From the IMG/VR virus record IMGVR_UViG_2563366852_000004, positions 1 to 37,397 of that record: a DNA stretch of 37,397 bases; one strand, written 5' to 3'. This document shows, piece after piece, positions 1 through 31,524 of this stretch. Positions within the stretch are counted from its first letter, which is position 1, and the number at the start of each line of letters is the position of its first letter. A model generated the notes under the pieces. The model did no database searches. It worked only from the letters and a program-made list of their open reading frames with translations, and was not told the DNA's origin. This DNA comes from a virus (lineage: Duplodnaviria > Heunggongvirae > Uroviricota > Caudoviricetes). The translations under genes and the position numbers were made by a program.

Positions 1-1110
1 TTAAAGACTTCTTCTTGTGCTTAATTTCAAGTTCATCTTTGCCCATGCATTTCTTATTATTTTATTTGCCGGCATCTCAATTAATTTAAATGATATAATA
101 GAGAAAAATATAGAAATACCCAGACAGCAAACTATATAAAATATAACATCACGTACATCATTTTTGTTTGGTTGCATTATTTCCATTAGCTTAGAAATTA
201 TGATCCAGTGGAACATGTAAAATGAGAAGGATGCCTCTCCTAATAGAATTAGATATCTGTTAGATAAAAATTTAGAAATCACCCCGCCATCAAATGCAAA
301 CGCTATTACTATCATAGCCATACATGGGATATAAAGAAGATCATATTTTATATTCATGTACGAAACATAATTTGTTGCTACATATACGGTAAACGCCAAA
401 AAAAACAGAGAGCCAATCTCCATGGCACTACATATCGCAGGTTTTATATTTACTTTTTTAGCAAGAAACACTCTACTGATTAATACACCAATAATAAAAT
501 CGCCAATCCTGAAAAATGGATTTATATAAAACAGCCAGTGTGATGAAATATTAACTGGTGGGTTCAATAAAAAAAATAAATTAACAATAACAATTACCAA
601 AAGAGTACTTGTTAGATATCGTGACTTAAACTTTACAAGAAGACAAAAAGATAAATAAAAAAACATCTCACACGAGATACTCCATGATACGGGGTTAAAA
701 GAAAAATAGTAATCTGAGATAGGGATAAATGATTGAACCAATAGCGCATTATATATTAATGACTCTTTATTTATAGCCTCAAAGTTTTTTGTATAGCCAA
801 ATATAAAAAGGACACATATCAATGATATAATATGAACAGGAAATAATCTCGCGAGTCTGTAAACTATGAAGTCCTTGTTGCTAAATTTACCTTCTTCCAT
901 ATGCTTACTAAAGCTGTAATTAATAATAAATCCGGAAAGAATATAGAAGAAAGTAACCCCTATATAACCATTAAAAAAGTATTTTGCCGCAACATTGAAC
1001 TGCGAGATCGAAGACTGAGACAAAATGCCTAGATGGCTAACAAATACACCAAGAGCCGCAAGCATTCGAAGTGATGTAAGGCTATGAATAATTTTGTTTT
1101 TCTGAGTCAT
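1..1110 (-). CDS. Acyltransferase family 3 integral membrane protein (O-antigen acetylase-like, probable lysogenic conversion gene)
   Basis: 369 aa ORF, ATG at 1108-1110, stop at 1-3. Multi-pass hydrophobic protein whose N-terminus (SLRMLAALGVFVSHLG) is typical of Acyl_transf_3 O-acetyltransferases. Visibly AT-rich; sits next to the tailspike at the prophage end, as oac does in Sf6-type phages. Confidence 0.75.
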   Translation of the reverse strand: MTQKNKIIHSLTSLRMLAALGVFVSHLGILSQSSISQFNVAAKYFFNGYIGVTFFYILSGFIINYSFSKHMEEGKFSNKDFIVYRLARLFPVHIISLICVLFIFGYTKNFEAINKESLIYNALLVQSFIPISDYYFSFNPVSWSISCEMFFYLSFCLLVKFKSRYLTSTLLVIVIVNLFFLLNPPVNISSHWLFYINPFFRIGDFIIGVLISRVFLAKKVNIKPAICSAMEIGSLFFLAFTVYVATNYVSYMNIKYDLLYIPCMAMIVIAFAFDGGVISKFLSNRYLILLGEASFSFYMFHWIIISKLMEIMQPNKNDVRDVIFYIVCCLGISIFFSIISFKLIEMPANKIIRNAWAKMNLKLSTRRSL

Positions 1111-1180: not shown

Positions 1181-2977
1181 TCAAAACTCCTGAACATCTG
1201 CGTTACCAGAGATGTTCCAGATTGATTTCGGAGACCCATTTACCCCTATCATCCTTACCTTCAACTTAGAACCGCTTGCTCTTGGTACGGTTAAATTTGC
1301 AGCAGATGGATTTATAGCCCAATCTCCACCATTTAATATGACACTCATTTCAACTACGCCACCATTATCAATATCTATTATAGGTGTTTGCATTACCGGG
1401 CTTTGTTGATCAATTGGCAGAAAGCCATTGACAATAATAGATGGTCTGAATGATGGGTTTCCCTGAACGCTAACACGCAGTTGCCCACCCTTAACAAATT
1501 CTGTTGCACAAGTATTCATGACAATGCAATAAGGATTTACAAAATCAAATGCATAGCAAATTGATTCCCCATCCATTGGCGTGCAGTTTTCAGCTGTACA
1601 ATTGGTCATGGTAGTATATTGCATTCCGGACATTCTAAATGACAACTGGTAACCGTTAACCTGAACAAGGCGCATATCCATAGAGGTGCCTATTACTCTT
1701 ATTTGACCATCCCTAAAATCTTCAAATAAAACTCCAGCATATCCTTTCCCGGGATATTGTGGGAAACCTACCATTTCCATTACGCCAGAGAACGGTACAT
1801 AAGAGAAGCAGCCGATATAAGCACATTCAAAAATTGACTGTCTGATAACTGGTGCTGCTGATTTTCCTAAAAACAATCCGTAATAATTTCTATAAGAATC
1901 TACGTTTTCTTGTGTTAAACCAAGCCTTCTAAACATGCAGTTTTCAACTCTACCGTTAACACAAAATGAACTCATTGAGTTATCCGTTAGATCCCATTGC
2001 TTTGGTATAAAAGCACATAATGCATCCACCTGAAGAATTACCTCTCCATTTTTTGTGAGATCTATTTTGTCATTTGTTGTTTTATAAAAAACTGTCGCTT
2101 CAGCCTTTCCATGGCCTCTAATTCCCATATTGTCATAAATTGGGATTGTTTTTGATGTATTTATGTTTCCAGCAGGAGCCTCTAGAATGCATTTGTTTGA
2201 GCGAGCAAAGTTAGTTGCAAGAGTTATGGCTGTCGCATTATCTGTTACTCCGTCAGGTTTCACCCCCCAAAATTGCATGTCGTAAGTGGTAAAATTAAAT
2301 CGTCTCCATACCATCGTTCCAGTTTCTGGCTTGATTACAATTCCACCATCATCAGCCCACGCCTGAATGTTATCAACAGACTCGAAAAAGCCGCCACCAA
2401 GGTGGTTTTCAGCATGTGTAGTGCTAGCTGCTGAGGCTACGTATACAATCTGCCCTGCCTCCTCTGGAACACAGGAGCGAAGCTCTGAAAGATTGAGAAA
2501 GCGGCCAATAGCGTTAAACCCTGTTTTAGCAGTTAATGAATCATGTGTAGCTTTCAAGATCTCCAGCTCAATCTTTACGGTTGTGCCTCCATAACCAACC
2601 AGAGATGCGCCATCAGGGCCAGAAAGCTCAGCCCTTAACTGGTCTGGAGAATATTTCAGTAGATCAGGATAATAGAATTGTTGTGCACCATATGCATCAT
2701 ACACAGCCATGGAGTGATTCTGTACAGTTGCGAACTTGGCGATCTGCCCGTTATATACCGGATATCCAGCAGCGTTGATAACTATTGGCTGCGCCACCTG
2801 AACATGAGAGCCATCTTCTCGTTCCAGATATACAGGGATCTGGTTTTCAGGATTTACCGGGTCAGTGTCAACCTGACCGATATAAATTTTGCCATTAGCT
2901 ACGGCTTTAAAAGAACGCGCCATAGTGAAGAGTTGCGAAGGCATACTCACTACAACATTGGCTGTAATGTCTGTCAT
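1181..2977 (-). CDS. Tailspike protein (P22 gp9-like N-terminal head-binding domain, divergent C-terminal receptor-binding domain)
   Basis: 598 aa. First ~110 aa ([11 protein letters not shown]...[27 protein letters not shown]...DGSHVQ) match the P22 tailspike head-binding domain from memory; the rest is unrelated to P22 gp9. ATG at 2975-2977. Confidence 0.85.
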
Positions 2978-3035
2978 CTAATTTGCTCCAGATGCAAGGA
3001 ATCGCCGCAGCATGGCTACGGTGAATTTTTGGCAT

Positions 3036-3058
3036 AAAAAAACCCAGCCGAAGCTGGG
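3036..3058 (-). terminator. Intrinsic terminator between ejection-protein gene and tailspike gene
   Basis: Minus strand reads CCCAGC-TTCG-GCTGGG followed by TTTTTTT (plus strand aaaaaaacccagccgaagctggg). Confidence 0.6.
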
Positions 3059-3164
3059 TCGTTGCGTTGGTTATCTGTCAGTAGTTATGTACTGAAGGAG
3101 GTAATTCTTATTCTTAAGTCTTATCAGGATTTGGAAACACAGTTATATGCAACAGTAGATAAAA

Positions 3165-19403: not shown

Positions 19404-19876
19404 ACCTCAATCTCTCTGACCGTTCCGCCTGCTTCTTTGAATTTTACAATCAGGCTGTCAGCCTTATGCTCGAACTGACCATAACCAGCGCCCGGCAGTG
19501 AAGCCCAGATATTGCTGCAACGGTCGATAGCCTGACGAATATCACCGCGATCAATCATCGGTAAAGCGCCACGCTCTTTAATCTGCTGTAGTGCAACAGC
19601 GTCCTGGCTTTTCGGAGAGAAGTCTTTCAGCCCAAGCTGCTTACGGTATGCATCCCACCAACGGGAAAGAAGCTGGTAACGTCCTGCTGCTGTTGATTTG
19701 AGTTTTGGGTTTAGCGTGACAAGTTTGCGAGGGTGATCGGAGTAATCGGTAAATAGCTCTCCGCCTACAATGACGTCATAACCATGATTTCTGGTTTTCT
19801 GACGTCCGTTATCAGTTCCCTCTGACCACGCCAGCATATCGAGGAACGCCTTACGTTGATTATTGATTTCCACCAT
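19400..19876 (-). CDS. R: Endolysin (lambda R-type lytic transglycosylase)
   Basis: 158 aa; near-identical to lambda R from memory ([49 protein letters not shown]...). Confidence 0.9.
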
Positions 19877-20183
19877 CTTCTACTCCGGCTTTTTTAGCAG
19901 CGAAGCGTTTGATAAGCGAACCAATCGAGTCAGTACCGATGTAGCCGATGAACACGCTCGTTATATAAGCGAGATTGCTACTTAGTCCGGCGAAGTCGAG
20001 AAGGTCACGAATGAACCAGGCGATAATGGCGCACATCGTTGCGTCGATTACTGTTTTTGTAAACGCACCGCCATTATATCTGCCGCGAAGGTACGCCATT
20101 GCAAACGCAAGGATTGCCCCGATGCCTTGTTCCTTTGCCGCGAGAATGGCGGCTAACAGGTCATGTTTTTCTGGCATCTTCAT
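19860..20183 (-). CDS. S: Holin (lambda S-type, dual-start motif)
   Basis: 107 aa beginning [20 protein letters not shown]..., matching lambda S107/S105 with the Met1-Lys-Met3 dual start. Confidence 0.9.
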
Positions 20184-27157: not shown

Positions 27158-27975
27158 GCAATCCCCCTGTCTGCAAACTTCCCTTCCCGTACTCCAGTTA
27201 ACGAATCTTCCCTCAGCAGGTAATCAAAATCAGCTGTCCAGCCCGTGTCGTTGTCTCCGAAGTAAAACGGCTTGGCCTGATGCACAAACGCCCTGACATA
27301 CGCTCTGAAACCGTCCACGTTTGGCGTTTTCAGTTGCGGGATGATTTTCTTCAGGCGGCGTTTGCGTTTCTCGTTGACCGCAACAGCGTGTGGCAGTCTG
27401 TCACCGACTTCGGTGTTGTAGGCGTTCAGGAAGGATTCGTAGTCGATTCGTTCTGCCTTGCGACGTTCAGGTTTAACCTGCCCATCGCCACCCCCGTTAG
27501 GGGGTAAGGGGGTATTTGTATTTATTGTCTTTTGTATATTGTCTTTTGTGTTTAGCTGACTTGGCTTATACCCATTAGCCGACTTGGCTAATGTTTTATT
27601 AGCTGTTTTAGCTAATGTTAAGCTGTCCTGGCTAATCCACTGAGAAACCACCTTGTTCACTCCGATTTTCACGCCATCAGCAATGAGGAATTTACGCTCG
27701 ATAAGCTGGCGCTTGGCAGCGCAAACATGAGTGTGATGAATACCTGTCATGGCTGCTATCTGCGTGTTTGTGAGTCGATCCATCGGCTTATTGAATCCGT
27801 ATGTCTTGCGCATGATAGCGAGCATCACCTTCAACTGCCGGACGGTTAAATCAGCCATCAGCAGACTGTCGGTAATCTCGTTAGCAACGCGCATGAAACC
27901 ATCTTCGGTATCTGCCACGCGATGCTCCACGACCTCAAGTTGAGGCCTGTAATCAGCTAACTTAACGACGCCCAT
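27154..27975 (-). CDS. Replication initiator (lambda O / P22 gene 18-like)
   Basis: 273 aa; the N-terminal region resembles lambda O and the iteron-type origin lies inside the coding sequence (27511-27640). Confidence 0.8.
27511..27640. repeat. Replication origin: four ~19-bp iterons plus adjacent AT-rich region inside the O-like gene
   Basis: Plus strand iterons ttagcTGACTTGGCTtata, ttagcCGACTTGGCTaatg, ttagcTGTTTTAGCTaatg and taagcTGTCCTGGCTaatc at about 20-bp spacing (about 27553-27638), flanked at 27511-27551 by AT-rich ggtatttgtatttattgtcttttgtatattgtcttttgtg. Confidence 0.7.
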
Positions 27976-28122
27976 GTTTCACTCCTGCTTTGGCTAGTCT
28001 GTAAACACCAACAAGGCGCTCTGCGAACGCCCTGTTATTTGCTGCGGCTACCACTAATCCCTCAGGTGAATCAGGGTGTCGAATCTCTTCTTTTTCCTGG
28101 TATTTCTTACGACGTTTTGTCA
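27962..28122 (-). CDS. Small hypothetical protein between cII and O
   Basis: Manual translation: ATG at 28120-28122 with AGGAG 5 nt upstream; 53 aa basic protein ([53 protein letters not shown]); 3' end overlaps the O start. Confidence 0.4.
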
Positions 28123-28157
28123 TAATTACTCCTGTGGATTGATCCAGTCTTTCTACA

Positions 28158-28436
28158 TCAGGCCTCGAAGAATTCGCCGTTCTTCGGGGCTTTTTCTTTT
28201 GTCAGCATTCTGGCTACTTTCTTAGCCAGTTCCGCCAACTCCTCGTCTTCAACACCCCATTCAAGAACAGCAAGAAGCATTCCCATTTTGGGGATGAAGC
28301 TGTCTTTCCATCGCGAAATTTGCGATTCATTAATCCCTAACGCGTCGGCAACCTTTCGCTGACCACGTACAGCAATTCGATTCAGGATGTTGCTTGTAAT
28401 TGCATTCGCTTTCTTGCGAGTACTTGTAAGTTGCAT
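28158..28436 (-). CDS. cII: Transcriptional activator CII
   Basis: 92 aa; SQISRWK....IPK..MLLAVLEWGV matches lambda CII from memory. Confidence 0.85.
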   Translation of the reverse strand: MQLTSTRKKANAITSNILNRIAVRGQRKVADALGINESQISRWKDSFIPKMGMLLAVLEWGVEDEELAELAKKVARMLTKEKAPKNGEFFEA

Positions 28437-28470
28437 ATGTAAGTATTTCCTTAACTAATAAGAAGTTATG

Positions 28471-28489
28471 CGCATCAACTTATGCGCGT
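28471..28489 (-). terminator. tR1-position hairpin between cro and cII
   Basis: Minus strand GCGCAT-AAGTTG-ATGCGC immediately downstream of nutR; no strong U-tract, so possibly Rho-dependent or a pause site. Confidence 0.3.
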
Positions 28490-28493
28490 TGTA

Positions 28494-28538
28494 TTCCCGC
28501 ATTTCGGCGGGAATGAGGACCATGACTGTTAAAGAGCG
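28494..28538 (-). promoter_or_regulatory. nutR (boxA + boxB)
   Basis: Minus strand boxA-like CGCTCTTTAACA followed by boxB hairpin CCCGCCGAAATGCGGG; the same boxA and boxB recur at nutL. Confidence 0.6.
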
Positions 28539-28544
28539 GTGTTA

Positions 28545-28739
28545 CTATTTGTTTTTCTTGTTGCTTGGGAAAGGACGAACTTCCTCTCCAATCACACTGC
28601 CATCAGGCTTTACCGTAACCATGATGTTACGGCCTGCCAGAATGGCCTTGCTGATAGCGCACTGGATTACACCAAAGTCACTGGCTGCTTTAGCCTGTCC
28701 ATGGATTTTGGCGTAATCGGCAAGTGTCATTCGAATCAT
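28545..28739 (-). CDS. cro: Cro repressor
   Basis: ORF-track entry 28545..28745 trimmed to the ATG at 28737-28739; [15 protein letters not shown]...AISKAI.AGR.I......DGSV..EEV.PFPSNKK matches lambda Cro from memory. Confidence 0.85.
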
Positions 28740-28768
28740 ATGCACTCTCCGTTATTAACCATGAACAA

Positions 28769-28797
28769 AGAATACTACAGGTATTCAAAACAATCAA
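28769..28797 (-). promoter_or_regulatory. pR promoter (candidate)
   Basis: Minus strand TTGATT, 17-nt spacer, TATTCT; the -10 overlaps the operator site nearest cro. Confidence 0.45.
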
Positions 28798-28834
28798 TAC
28801 TCAGGGTATTTTTAATTTAAGTACCTTAGCTATT
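28771..28834. promoter_or_regulatory. oR operator region: three sites (AATAC-N5-GTATT consensus)
   Basis: AATACTACAGGTATT (28771-28785), AATACTCAGGGTATT (28796-28810) and degenerate AGTACCTTAGCTATT (28820-28834) at about 24-25 bp centre spacing between the divergent cro and cI starts. Confidence 0.65.
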
Positions 28835-28845
28835 AGAATTAAGCT

Positions 28846-29562
28846 ATGGAAAATAAAAAATCACTGACGACAGAACAGCTCGAAGACGCTAAGCGGCTTA
28901 AGGCTTTGTATGAGTCAAAAAAGAAAGAATTGGGAATAACCCAATACTCAATCGCTGATGAACTGGGTATCACCCAAGGAGCGGTAGGGCATTATCTTAA
29001 TGGCAGAAACGCGCTAAACGTTGAGGTCGCATCTGGTTTTGCACGTTTGTTGCAAGTCTCAATTGCTGATTTTAGCCAGTCAATTGCTGCCAAGGTTGCA
29101 GAACAGGCAGAAAGCCTTAAGAGCGATGCCAACGTAAGGTATGCAGGGGAATACAGAGCAGGAAAGAGGTATCCGGTGTTAAGCAGTATCCAGGCTGGCT
29201 CGTGGTGTGAAGCATGCGAACCATACACCATTAAAGACATAGATGTTTGGCTTGAGTCTGACGCGCATATTCAAGGTAATGCGTTCTGGCTTAAAGTGGA
29301 AGGTGATTCAATGACGGCACCGGTTGGGTTAAGCATCCCAGAGGGAACATTCGTTCTTTTCGATACCGGAAGGGAGGCGATCAACGGCAGCTTGGTCATA
29401 GCAAAACTTTCTGACTCTAACGAAGCAACATTCAAGAAGCTGATAATCGACGGCGGAAATAAATACCTCAAGGGACTTAATCCTGCATGGCCTCTCGTGC
29501 CAATCAATGGAAACTGCAAGATTATAGGCGTTGCAATTGAGACAAAACTAAGGCTGGTTTGA
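28846..29562 (+). CDS. cI: CI-type prophage repressor (HTH N-terminus + S24 LexA-like autopeptidase C-terminus)
   Basis: 238 aa; HTH segment ITQYSIADELGITQGAVGHYLNG; C-terminal GDSM (catalytic Ser) and FKKL (catalytic Lys) motifs; divergent from cro across the operator region; almost no 5' leader. Confidence 0.9.
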   Translation: MENKKSLTTEQLEDAKRLKALYESKKKELGITQYSIADELGITQGAVGHYLNGRNALNVEVASGFARLLQVSIADFSQSIAAKVAEQAESLKSDANVRYAGEYRAGKRYPVLSSIQAGSWCEACEPYTIKDIDVWLESDAHIQGNAFWLKVEGDSMTAPVGLSIPEGTFVLFDTGREAINGSLVIAKLSDSNEATFKKLIIDGGNKYLKGLNPAWPLVPINGNCKIIGVAIETKLRLV

Positions 29563-29579
29563 TCACGCAAGGGGAGCTT

Positions 29580-29948
29580 ATGGTTGGAACCGCTATAGCA
29601 AGCTTTTTTGGGATGTTGGCAATCTCGACAATTTACGGCTTAGCGCATGCTTTTATTGCGAAATCTCTATCAGAAAAAATAAGCCAGGCTTGGGCGCATA
29701 GATCAGCTCGTTTCATGATTCTGGTGATCATAGCAATACAAGGGATATCTGCATTTATCCTCTATGGATCAAGCTTATACCTATTGTATCAAGGCGCGAC
29801 ATTTACGCCTTACACCAGTGATTACGGAACTCTATACGATGGTAGTGAAGACATCACTGTGGCTTGGATCGTCTTTGGTTTATCTATGGCCGTGTCTGTT
29901 GTAGCAGACATCATTAAGGTAATTCTCGTCTTAACCTTCGCTGACTAA
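29580..29948 (+). CDS. Small integral membrane protein co-transcribed with cI (candidate superinfection exclusion or abortive infection protein)
   Basis: ATG at 29580-29582 (GGGGAG 3-4 nt upstream), 18 nt after the cI stop; 122 aa with three long hydrophobic segments; sits where lambda carries rexA/rexB. Confidence 0.55.
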   Translation: MVGTAIASFFGMLAISTIYGLAHAFIAKSLSEKISQAWAHRSARFMILVIIAIQGISAFILYGSSLYLLYQGATFTPYTSDYGTLYDGSEDITVAWIVFGLSMAVSVVADIIKVILVLTFAD

Positions 29949-30034
29949 CCTATAATCCCGGCAGCAATAGCTATCGGGATCCACTTCACATATCCCGCAT
30001 AAAAAGCACTGAACAAGCAGACACCGAAAAAATA

Positions 30035-30119
30035 AATATCCTTTGTATTCATTTGCTTATCATTATTTCACCAAAAATAAATACCTTGGGTATTTACACA
30101 ATAAAATACCTACAGTATT
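30035..30119. promoter_or_regulatory. oL operator region and pL
   Basis: AATACCTTGGGTATT (30080-30094) and AATACCTACAGTATT (30105-30119), plus a more distant 1-mismatch site AATATCCTTTGTATT (30035-30049). Candidate pL: -35 TTTACA (30093-30098), 17 nt, -10 TATTCT (30116-30121), directed toward N. Confidence 0.6.
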
Positions 30120-30166
30120 CTTTAGCCATCAGCAGGACGCTGGAAGCCAAACGGAACAGATTGGCA

Positions 30167-30208
30167 GGCTCTTTAACATTGATGGGATTGTCCCGCCGAA
30201 ATGCGGGA
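30167..30208 (+). promoter_or_regulatory. nutL (boxA + boxB)
   Basis: boxA-like GGCTCTTTAACA (30167-30178) and boxB hairpin TCCCGCCGAAATGCGGGA (30191-30208), identical in core to nutR. Confidence 0.6.
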
Positions 30209-30315
30209 ACCAAAGAGTAGTTGGCTTTGGGGTGACGTGAAGTGCAGCTGCACGACGGCAACCGGAAGATAAGCACCCGGCGCGTCACCGCCAAAGTCAA
30301 TCATCGGAGGTCAAC

Positions 30316-30579
30316 ATGACAGTAGTCATTACATATCTGGCTGACGATAACGCCAGAAATCGCCGCAGAGCACGCAGACAGGCTCAACGTGAGCAGGCAA
30401 TGCAGGACGCTTCTCTTTCGCGCCGGGTAGCAAATAGCACATGCAGTACACGCGTAACAAAAGCCATTTCGCTTGCCGGAACGCTTCAGAAGGAAGTTGA
30501 AGGTGGTACTGTCTGCCTGCCAGAAGTTGCGCTTTTCGCAGCTGGTCATCGTACAAGTAAGCAGGTTACAGCGAGGTAA
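30316..30579 (+). CDS. N-type antiterminator (P22 gene 24-like)
   Basis: 87 aa; arginine-rich N-terminus NARNRRRARRQAQREQ; C-terminus RVTKAISLAGTLQKEVEGGTVCLPEVALFAAGHRTSKQVTAR matches P22 gp24 from memory; GGAGG RBS. Confidence 0.8.
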   Translation: MTVVITYLADDNARNRRRARRQAQREQAMQDASLSRRVANSTCSTRVTKAISLAGTLQKEVEGGTVCLPEVALFAAGHRTSKQVTAR

Positions 30580-30582
30580 GTG

Positions 30583-30807
30583 ATGAATCAGACATACATA
30601 CCATCATGCTTGAGAAATCTGCCAAAGCAGAAAGCAAAGCCCCGAAAGCAAGCCATAAAGGACGCTAAGGCAGAGGTTATTGATCAAGCAATACAATTGC
30701 TCAGGGATGAGTTAAGAAGTGGCAAGCTCGAAGGAATGATGATGCCCTATCAGCGCGGATATCTATCGGCGATTAGTAAGTTGGAAGTATTGAAGAGTGA
30801 ATTATGA
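30583..30807 (+). CDS. Hypothetical protein (pL operon)
   Basis: 74 aa from ATG 30583 (ORF-track entry 30580 begins one codon earlier at GTG); basic, helical-looking sequence. Confidence 0.45.
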   Translation: MNQTYIPSCLRNLPKQKAKPRKQAIKDAKAEVIDQAIQLLRDELRSGKLEGMMMPYQRGYLSAISKLEVLKSEL

Positions 30808-30939
30808 ACTATCTGGAATTTCCGGATGGTTCATTGTTTTGGCAGCAAACCACTTATTTGAGGTGAGATATGGAAGAAGAATTTGAAGAGTTCGAAGAGC
30901 ATCCTCAGGATGTGATGGAACAATACCAGGACTATCCGT

Positions 30940-31037
30940 ATGACTACGACTATTGATAAGAATCAATGGAGTGGACAATACGAACGACGGCAATGATTGC
31001 CAGAGAACTTGGTAAACAGAACAACAAAGCTGCCTGA
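30940..31037 (+). pseudogene. ral: ral (restriction alleviation) remnant with internal deletion and frameshift
   Basis: ATG at 30940 reads MTTTIDKNQWSGQYERRQ*, matching the lambda Ral N-terminus as remembered (MTTTIDKNQWCGQ...). A different frame reads ...IRTTAMIARELGKQNNKAA* (stop 31035-31037), matching the Ral C-terminus. The two are separated by only a few bases instead of the ~40 codons of intact Ral. Confidence 0.5.
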
Positions 31038-31173
31038 TAGTGGCCTTTATTTTTGGCATAAATAACAGAATAAACACTGCACTGTGTATTCATTCCAACG
31101 AGTGAATACACGGAGCAATGTCGCTCGTAACTAAACAGGAGCCGACTTGTTCTGATTATTGGAAATCTTCTTT

Positions 31174-31200
31174 GCCCTCCAATGTGAGGGCAATTTTTTT
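31174..31200 (+). terminator. Intrinsic terminator within the pL operon (tL-type)
   Basis: GCCCTC-CAATGT-GAGGGC followed by AATTTTTTT on the plus strand. Confidence 0.6.
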
Positions 31201-31212
31201 GACGGAGGATAT

Positions 31213-31524
31213 ATGAAATTACGTGTCTGGCATATCCCGCAAGTACCTATGAAGCCGTTCATTGTAGAAGTGGCAAGTGTTGAAGAGGGTGTTCGCCTGA
31301 TGGACGCACTGGCTGATTATGACGCCTTTCAGTATGACAACAACATCAAGCCTGATTACTGCAATGCTAACGGCCTTGAGATGTGGGATGAGAGCCTTAC
31401 CGATGAAGATTTATCAGAGATGGGGCTTACTGATCGCTGGGTGGATTGGTACAGCGAATGCCAATGTTACGACGACCCACGTAAATATCTCGAAAGCCTG
31501 AAAGAAGAAACATCAGCCGCCTAA
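31213..31524 (+). CDS. Hypothetical protein (in the position of lambda ea10, between ral and cIII)
   Basis: ATG at 31213 with GGAGG RBS; 103 aa (MKLRVWHIPQVPMKPFIVEVASVEEGVRLMDALADYDAFQYDN...). The ORF-track 121 aa version starts upstream inside the terminator hairpin and is not preferred. Confidence 0.55.
   Translation: MKLRVWHIPQVPMKPFIVEVASVEEGVRLMDALADYDAFQYDNNIKPDYCNANGLEMWDESLTDEDLSEMGLTDRWVDWYSECQCYDDPRKYLESLKEETSAA

Follow-up and report, generated by a model that had tools for sequence, protein, structure and literature searches.

hkaS, a membrane-protein gene behind cI in HK620-type immunity modules, and its possible role in superinfection exclusion

hkaS is a small gene found directly behind the cI repressor gene in HK620-type immunity modules of lambdoid phages. 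It was studied here in a 37,397-nucleotide (nt) stretch of a temperate Caudoviricetes virus of E. coli (IMG/VR record IMGVR_UViG_2563366852_000004, positions 1 to 37,397), referred to below in its entirety as the window. Within the cI operon hkaS forms the second cistron, which is also the last, and it is classed as an accessory (moron-type) gene. It is a real gene kept by purifying selection, under a constraint about 19-fold looser than that on cI, as expected for accessory cargo. Its product, HkaS, is a protein of 122 amino acids (aa) predicted to cross the inner membrane three times. Position and protein type make it plausible, if only tentatively, that HkaS acts against phages at the membrane, most likely by hindering the entry of their genomes.

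Placement of hkaS in the cI operon

The operon is made up of the following elements:

29580-29948, plus strand: hkaS-family gene encoding a 122-aa inner-membrane protein with three transmembrane (TM) segments (PHROG 6534); ATG start, TAA stop
28846-29562, plus strand: cI repressor gene, 238 aa, first cistron of the immunity operon; HTH_3 and Peptidase_S24 domains; matches cI of HK620 and mEpX2
29563-29579, plus strand: cI-hkaS spacer of 17 nt containing the Shine-Dalgarno (SD) sequence AAGGGGAG, as read from the sequence

The cI gene ends in a TGA codon at 29560-29562, and AAGGGGAG is placed 6-13 nt 5' of the hkaS ATG. In seven divergent loci an SD-like purine run and a spacer of 17-20 nt are kept, although the spacer sequence itself varies. 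A longer, TTG-started reading of hkaS (29559, 129 aa) is unsupported, and the Salmonella homologue has an in-frame TAA immediately 5' of its ATG. No terminator was predicted between cI and hkaS in a scan of the sequence. Only 108 nt separate the hkaS stop from the operator OL3, and no conserved open reading frame (ORF) that could be a partner of hkaS was found on either side of it, in the intervals to cI and to oL.

A very hydrophobic antisense ORF of 35 aa (29945-30052, minus strand), considered as a partner or as a type-I-toxin-like gene, was rejected: it is missing from the Salmonella locus and from one divergent locus (L007), and is truncated and divergent in Hafnia-type loci. This ORF is convergent with hkaS, with overlapping stop codons, and is probably spurious. 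An earlier note on this DNA had described hkaS as a gene that starts 18 nt after the cI stop on the cI strand, has no partner, and fills the slot between the repressor and oL/pL where lambda carries rexA and rexB. The start is exact (the ATG begins at the 18th base), the missing partner is borne out by the 108-nt interval and the poorly conserved antisense ORF, and the slot was verified by mapping the HK620 annotation and by a promoter scan. The surrounding immunity region, which is of the lambdoid kind and inverted in the window, contains the following features:

28158-28436, minus strand: cII
28413-28452, plus strand: pRE, activated by cII (HK620 annotation mapped)
28545-28745, minus strand: cro
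28762-28835, no strand assigned: oR operators OR1-OR3 with pR (HK620 annotation mapped); pRM is presumed here and is not annotated
29955-29980, plus strand: stable RNA hairpin 7 nt 3' of the hkaS stop, without a U-tract (-14.1 kcal/mol, z = -3.1)
about 30057-30120, plus strand: oL operators OL3, OL2 and OL1, with pL at 30093-30128 firing away from hkaS (HK620 annotation mapped)
30316-30579, plus strand: N-type antiterminator

The HK620 features were transferred to the window through a gap-free alignment with a constant offset of 27079. The order given by the HK620 depositors is OR1-3, pR, pRE, cI, hkaS ("unknown"), tIMM, OL3-OL1, pL, nutL and N, and their record locates tIMM ("termination of cI transcript") 3' of hkaS. 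An independent scan with a consensus promoter also found pL, at 30093-30121. Operator-like repeats near oL are kept in homologous loci, and a cII-binding site is annotated in the mEpX2 record. An Rfam scan of 28000-31000 gave no match.

From this architecture it is inferred that hkaS is co-transcribed with cI, from pRM in the lysogen and from pRE during establishment. Since pL and pR both fire away from it, hkaS should not be transcribed from the lytic promoters. With expression from pRM and pRE, HkaS would be present constitutively in the inner membrane of lysogens, where it would be made from pRM. The transcript probably ends, or is terminated, at the hairpin at 29955-29980. A hairpin lies 9-22 nt past the hkaS stop in seven of seven divergent loci (the window, L003, L007, L009, L020, L023 and L026). 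At least four unrelated sequences make up these hairpins, whose z scores range from -1.8 to -5.3, and none is followed by a U-tract. The tIMM of HK620 sits 50-80 nt beyond the hairpin and overlaps OL3; the true end of the transcript may be the hairpin.

The HkaS protein and its family

The three long hydrophobic segments that the earlier note had read in the 122-aa ORF were confirmed by hydropathy, which places them at residues ~3-27, 45-70 and 93-121, and by an AlphaFold2 model with a mean predicted local distance difference test (pLDDT) score of 92 and a predicted template modelling (pTM) score of 0.79, built on an alignment of seven sequences. The first loop (28-44) is basic (K28, K33, R41, R44) and the second (71-92) acidic (D81, D87, E90, D91). 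By the positive-inside rule this charge distribution predicts that the N-terminus is outside, loop 1 inside, loop 2 outside and the C-terminus inside. The model contains helices at 2-29, 31-38, 41-73 and 89-121 and a beta-hairpin at 78-86. The short helix 31-38 is predicted to be amphipathic and to lie in the cytoplasmic loop, and the Tyr-rich beta-hairpin is predicted to lie in the periplasmic loop.

Across 28 family clusters, invariant residues are S8, Y19, W38, H40, A43, R44, F45, I47, L48 and Q54 in the N-terminal half and Y67, L69, T74, G88, W96, F99, D110, K113, I115, T119 and A121 in the C-terminal half. The recognisable motifs are G3xxx(G/A)7xxxG11 in TM1, QAWxHRxARFIIL at the cytoplasmic entry of TM2, YLLYxGATFxPY at its periplasmic end and DIxKxIxVLTFAD at the C-terminus, where the protein ends in ...VLTFAD. 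A conserved face runs along TM3 (W96, F99, M103, S106, D110, K113, V117 and A121; permutation p = 0.009). As judged from the TM1 glycine motif and the conserved TM3 stripe, HkaS probably self-associates through these two elements. At the periplasmic start of TM3, residues 93-94 (29856-29861) show a balanced dimorphism in E. coli-type loci, with T93-V94 in 43 and S93-M94 in 36-37 of 80 copies; all other variants of the protein in these loci are rare.

HkaS of the window is 99.2% identical to hkaS of HK620 and matches phrog_6534, a family of unknown function, over its full length (E = 2.4e-79, positions 1-122 of 122). The earlier note's suggestion of a possibly undescribed family does not hold: hkaS has been annotated since the deposition of HK620 in 2001 (as "unknown"), the sequence family is catalogued, without a function, as PHROG 6534, and the kind to which it belongs, repressor-operon cargo, is well known. 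No Pfam or NCBIfam family matched above threshold, and matches to Cation_ATPase_C (17.6 bits), TssN and holin_tox_secr (12.9 bits) were dismissed as noise from TM composition. A search of the PDB with the HkaS sequence profile gave 0 matches at E <= 10.

Sixteen phage-collection records carry hkaS, among them HK620, HK630, HK140, mEpX2, HZ41, HF4s, phi296, phi367, 611R6 and two Stx2c phages. HkaS forms 12 clusters in a word-indexed search of 5.8 billion proteins and 33 in a profile search. The latter are 121-122 aa long, apart from a few truncated or frameshifted E. coli variants, and all are at least 52% identical; clusters with a named source come from Escherichia, Salmonella, Hafnia, Klebsiella, Citrobacter and Cronobacter. 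The E-values of the profile search end abruptly at 1e-39. An exhaustive phmmer search over 1.84 billion representatives gave one true relative and added nothing more distant. Two further phmmer matches, proteins of 2,200 aa, aligned 9-12 repeated 40-aa units of beta-rich sequence to TM2 and were set aside as chance matches, not homologues. A scan of GTDB species representatives found a single hkaS locus, in Buttiauxella, which is too sparse to describe a distribution. The family is small and confined to Enterobacterales, where it occurs in at least seven genera. Its E. coli, Salmonella and Klebsiella types form allele groups that are 50-60% identical to one another.

Of 5426 complete E. coli genomes, 146 (2.7%) carry the cI-hkaS-oL block; they come from human, livestock and food sources and include Stx-phage backgrounds, and each of the 146 holds a place that covers at least 80% of the block. 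The same module is found in podoviruses (HK620 and the P22-like window), siphoviruses (mEpX2, HK630 and HK140) and Stx phages. In three E. coli contig variants (P0006, P0007 and P0009) residues ~3-27, which form TM1, are replaced by an out-of-frame stretch before the frame is regained, and three further forms (P0004, P0008 and P0014) are truncated. These variants could be sequencing errors or natural losses of TM1.

Selection on hkaS and its linkage to cI

Between the window and a Hafnia-type locus, synonymous divergence (dS) is 0.69 in hkaS and 0.76 in cI, non-synonymous divergence (dN) is 0.093 and 0.022, and dN/dS is 0.135 and 0.029, respectively. With dN/dS of 0.13-0.2, hkaS is clearly under purifying selection. 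In distant pairs, where dS is saturated in both genes, dN reaches 0.33-0.44 in hkaS and ~0.08 in cI. Mean protein identity across seven diverse loci is 57% for HkaS, 89% for cI and 85% for Cro. Within 79 E. coli-type loci, synonymous nucleotide diversity (piS) is 0.027 in hkaS and 0.026 in cI, while the non-synonymous value (piN) is 0.0071 against 0.0004, giving piN/piS of 0.26 and 0.014. The IMG/VR and GTDB loci hold 25 distinct protein alleles of HkaS and 6 of cI.

These data effectively refute the proposal that hkaS is a non-functional, hitch-hiking ORF trapped between cI and oL, which is now highly improbable. The very small and taxonomically narrow family would suit such an origin, as would the rare N-terminally frameshifted and truncated variants described above. 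However, the ORF is intact in 81 of 81 IMG/VR and GTDB copies, its length is held at 121-122 aa down to 50% identity, dN/dS stays at 0.13-0.26 although synonymous sites are saturated, and conservation extends to the SD sequence and the invariant motifs.

The gene is firmly attached to its repressor. In 80 of 80 IMG/VR and GTDB loci with upstream sequence, cI lies 17-20 nt 5' of hkaS on the same strand. Loci of divergent members from six genera show this spacing too in 17 of 17 cases, with cro on the minus strand followed by cI, hkaS and an N gene on the plus strand, and the N type and replication genes vary between them. The N allele of the window is itself common to only 3 of the 81 IMG/VR and GTDB loci. 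The window as a whole is a mosaic. At 27945-30880, the immunity region, it shares 99.4% identity with the siphovirus mEpX2, whereas its virion half is of the P22 type and 95% identical to CUS-3. As the 99.4% identity to mEpX2 is limited to the immunity region, the window is not that phage. With varying N and replication neighbours and with both podovirus and siphovirus virions, hkaS evidently travels with the immunity module and not with the virion, lysis or replication module.

Two side observations concern this part of the map. In a Cronobacter contig (L023, 3867-5035), no gene is called over ~1.1 kb 3' of hkaS, the place of oL/pL and N in other loci. In the window, 235 bp of the cII-cro region (28445-28679) are 99.6% identical to MT713136.1 (Aeromonas phage AP1) at 253425-253659. 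This match lies at the extreme end of a 254-kb jumbo-phage record and looks like assembly contamination there.

Recombination also reaches into the operon. Between two divergent loci (L007 and L020), nucleotide identity is 98-100% across cro and cI, falls to 81-91% in hkaS and then gives way to unalignable sequence (L007 3966-5400). In one locus pair cI is 99.6% and Cro 100% identical and HkaS only 87%, with a synonymous divergence of 0.10 in cI that climbs to 0.28 in hkaS. Such a pattern points to a gradient of recombination around the 3' end of cI, where HkaS alleles are exchanged.

The strict linkage raises the question of whether HkaS acts on the lysogenic switch itself. It might stabilise lysogeny or tune induction, either as reported for Hex of 434, through RecA-stimulated repressor cleavage, or via membrane proteases such as FtsH/HflKC, which control cII and cIII. 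The same cI lineage lies directly 5' of hkaS in 97 of 97 loci with upstream sequence and no other repressor was seen there; the gene was never lost in the 146 E. coli genomes, and its architecture leads one to expect expression from both pRE and pRM. Moreover, the most conserved parts of the protein, QAWxHRxARF and the C-terminal motif, are predicted to face the cytoplasm, and Hex is a precedent in the closest well-studied cI relative (52% identical). The exclusive association can, however, be explained without functional coupling, because hkaS lies between cI and its oL, which must co-segregate, and recombination that separates them breaks immunity. The close cI relatives of OS31 (71%) and mEp213 manage with an empty slot, no soluble HkaS domain is available to contact cI or RecA, and both the looser constraint on HkaS and the 87% identical alleles beside 99.6% identical cI argue against tight co-adaptation. 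A role in the switch is accordingly judged quite unlikely.

Candidate roles of HkaS in the lysogen

Lambdoid phages use the interval between cI and oL for varied cargo. It holds rexA and rexB in lambda, Nun of HK022 also comes from it, and hex occupies it in 434 (cI 52% identical) and Sf101 (51%); in Serratia phage OS31 (cI 71%) and mEp213 (51%) it is empty. The pRM transcripts of lambdoid phages carry the accessory genes rexAB, stk of 933W and hex, and hex of 434, which takes its name from heterologous exclusion, both keeps out P22 and makes the lysogen more stable towards RecA (Shkilnyj et al., PMC3564112). bstA is found in the same position, in a cI-N interval noted as a hotspot for mosaic diversity (Owen et al., PMC8585504).

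Besides the selective constraint, the operon architecture and the membrane-protein character described above, an exclusion role for HkaS is favoured because of these precedents (rexA/rexB, hex, stk and bstA), because the content of the slot changes from one close cI relative to the next, and because the module is independent of virion type. On this reading HkaS would act at the inner membrane, where it would keep heterologous phages from infecting the lysogen, most likely by obstructing the entry of their genomes; it would then be a superinfection-exclusion protein of the P22 SieA, T4 Imm and HK97 gp15 kind. The entry block was proposed because HkaS is a single gene product without a soluble sensor domain or partner, and because such a block needs no self-immunity at prophage induction; as a specific mechanism it is still rather doubtful.

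HkaS shares traits with each of several known proteins. HK97 gp15 and T4 Imm, which block phage DNA entry, are likewise small proteins integral to the membrane, with next to no soluble part. However, gp15 has 62 aa and is a moron of the tail gene cluster, whereas HkaS has 122 aa and belongs to the immunity operon, and HkaS gave no Pfam match to the Imm family at E <= 1. P22 SieA is a small polytopic inner-membrane prophage protein for which a single gene is sufficient, as would be the case for HkaS, and it is carried by P22-like phages, the type to which the window belongs. SieA blocks DNA delivery through an interaction with ejection proteins. sieA, though, has a promoter of its own and is located outside the immunity module, between gene 16 and the immI/tailspike region; no sieA or immI gene was found in the corresponding interval of the window (2978-3164, from a gene 16-like ORF to the tailspike).

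Among slot neighbours, lambda RexB is, like HkaS, a polytopic inner-membrane protein encoded between cI and oL. RexB is expressed with cI in the lysogen and dispensable for phage growth, which is counted as a further likeness. It differs in its length (144 aa in the lambda record) and in working with an adjacent sensor, RexA, while HkaS has no partner gene. 434 Hex resembles HkaS as a single accessory gene product of similar size (134 aa), encoded directly behind cI on the pRM transcript, but in place of three TM segments it combines a soluble body with a single signal-like hydrophobic segment at the N-terminus, and hex overlaps the cI stop whereas hkaS follows its 17-nt spacer. SieB of lambda and 434 is encoded on the far side of N and on the opposite strand, whereas hkaS lies before pL. 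Like hkaS, bstA of BTP1 and stk of 933W are defence genes 3' of cI that share its promoter; both products are reported to act intracellularly, BstA at phage DNA replication sites and Stk as a protein kinase, whereas HkaS is a small membrane protein.

Several results weigh against an exclusion role. HkaS matched 0 families in PADLOC-DB 2.0 at E <= 10, fold searches with its model returned generic helical bundles only, and no paper on hkaS or its accessions was found in the literature retrievable here. No similarity was detected to RexB (hhalign probability 0.7%; no Pfam match at E <= 1) or lambda SieB (1.8%), as had been surmised in the earlier note, nor to P22 SieA (0.6%), HK97 gp15 (0.1%) or 434 Hex (BLASTP E = 4). 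In sequence, then, the HkaS family is unrelated to all known members of repressor-operon cargo compared here. hkaS carries no signature of positive selection (piN/piS 0.26, with variants that are mostly conservative singletons), and its periplasmic YLLYQGATFxPY motif is conserved rather than variable. That hkaS is seen solely with one cI lineage could mean that its function is tied to that repressor, and Hex sets the precedent that slot cargo can act on repressor stability (PMC3564112). Finally, entry block is preferred to abortive infection on parsimony only.

A rival reading makes HkaS a pore. The protein might oligomerise into a latent RexB- or holin-like pore without a RexA-type sensor; a membrane event during superinfection would open it, the potential would collapse and the infection would abort. 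hkaS occupies the slot of rexB, TM1 contains the glycine-zipper-like motif, the invariant Q54, D110 and K113 are placed inside TM helices, and the conserved TM3 face extends along the whole length of the helix. Class I (S-type) holins have three TM segments with the N-terminus out and the C-terminus in, and the layout predicted for HkaS agrees with this. In addition, the Salmonella homologue gave the sub-threshold match to holin_tox_secr, although at 12.9 bits against a cutoff of 40.2 it is at noise level. Holins typically end in a charged C-terminal tail, which HkaS lacks. Furthermore, hkaS lies outside the lysis cassette, the window has its own holin at 19860-20183, and HkaS shows no similarity to RexB or to the S holin of mEpX2 (hhalign probability 0.2%). 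No partner or sensor gene was found, and a constitutive, autonomous pore needs both a trigger and self-immunity, of which there is no trace. Such an abortive pore is considered unlikely, and the stricter proposal that HkaS is an autonomous single-protein device, which both senses superinfection and forms the depolarising pore in the manner of RexB without RexA, is slightly more so.

HkaS could also serve the lysogen in a way unrelated to phages, as a lysogenic-conversion factor that alters host physiology (stress tolerance, transporter activity or the envelope) and brings a benefit in the gut. Compatible with this are the expression expected in the lysogen, the occurrence of hkaS (2.7% of the complete E. 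coli genomes, and prophages from seven or more genera of enterobacteria) and a moderate constraint of the degree usual for accessory genes. Against it, every functionally characterised gene retrieved here for the slot has phages or its own prophage as its target, and searches of Pfam and NCBIfam gave no similarity to a known host-fitness factor or transporter accessory protein. A host factor of this sort is improbable.

The earlier note had taken this slot to be the likeliest place in the window for a prophage-encoded exclusion function. This stands in so far as the slot carries exclusion cargo in relatives, but the window has another candidate. An Acyl_transf_3 family gene (1-1110, minus strand, 369 aa) adjoins the tailspike gene (1181-2977, minus strand), whose product has a P22 head-binding domain, and from its family and position it is likely to be a lysogenic-conversion gene that modifies the O-antigen. 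The pL operon of the window also contains a homologue of P22 gene 17 (31159-31524, plus strand; Pfam GP17, "superinfection exclusion gene product 17", E = 1e-55).

The cI-oL interval is the most reliably lysogen-expressed part of a lambdoid prophage and has already yielded RexAB, Hex, Stk and BstA. To a specialist, a further gene of this kind is unsurprising; hkaS is a widespread and easily testable candidate. If HkaS excludes phages, it would represent a new minimal membrane-protein family in prophage-encoded immunity and would matter for host range in phage therapy and for the way in which Stx and other prophages compete. A role in tuning induction would instead make it the second case of the Hex idea, this time in the membrane.

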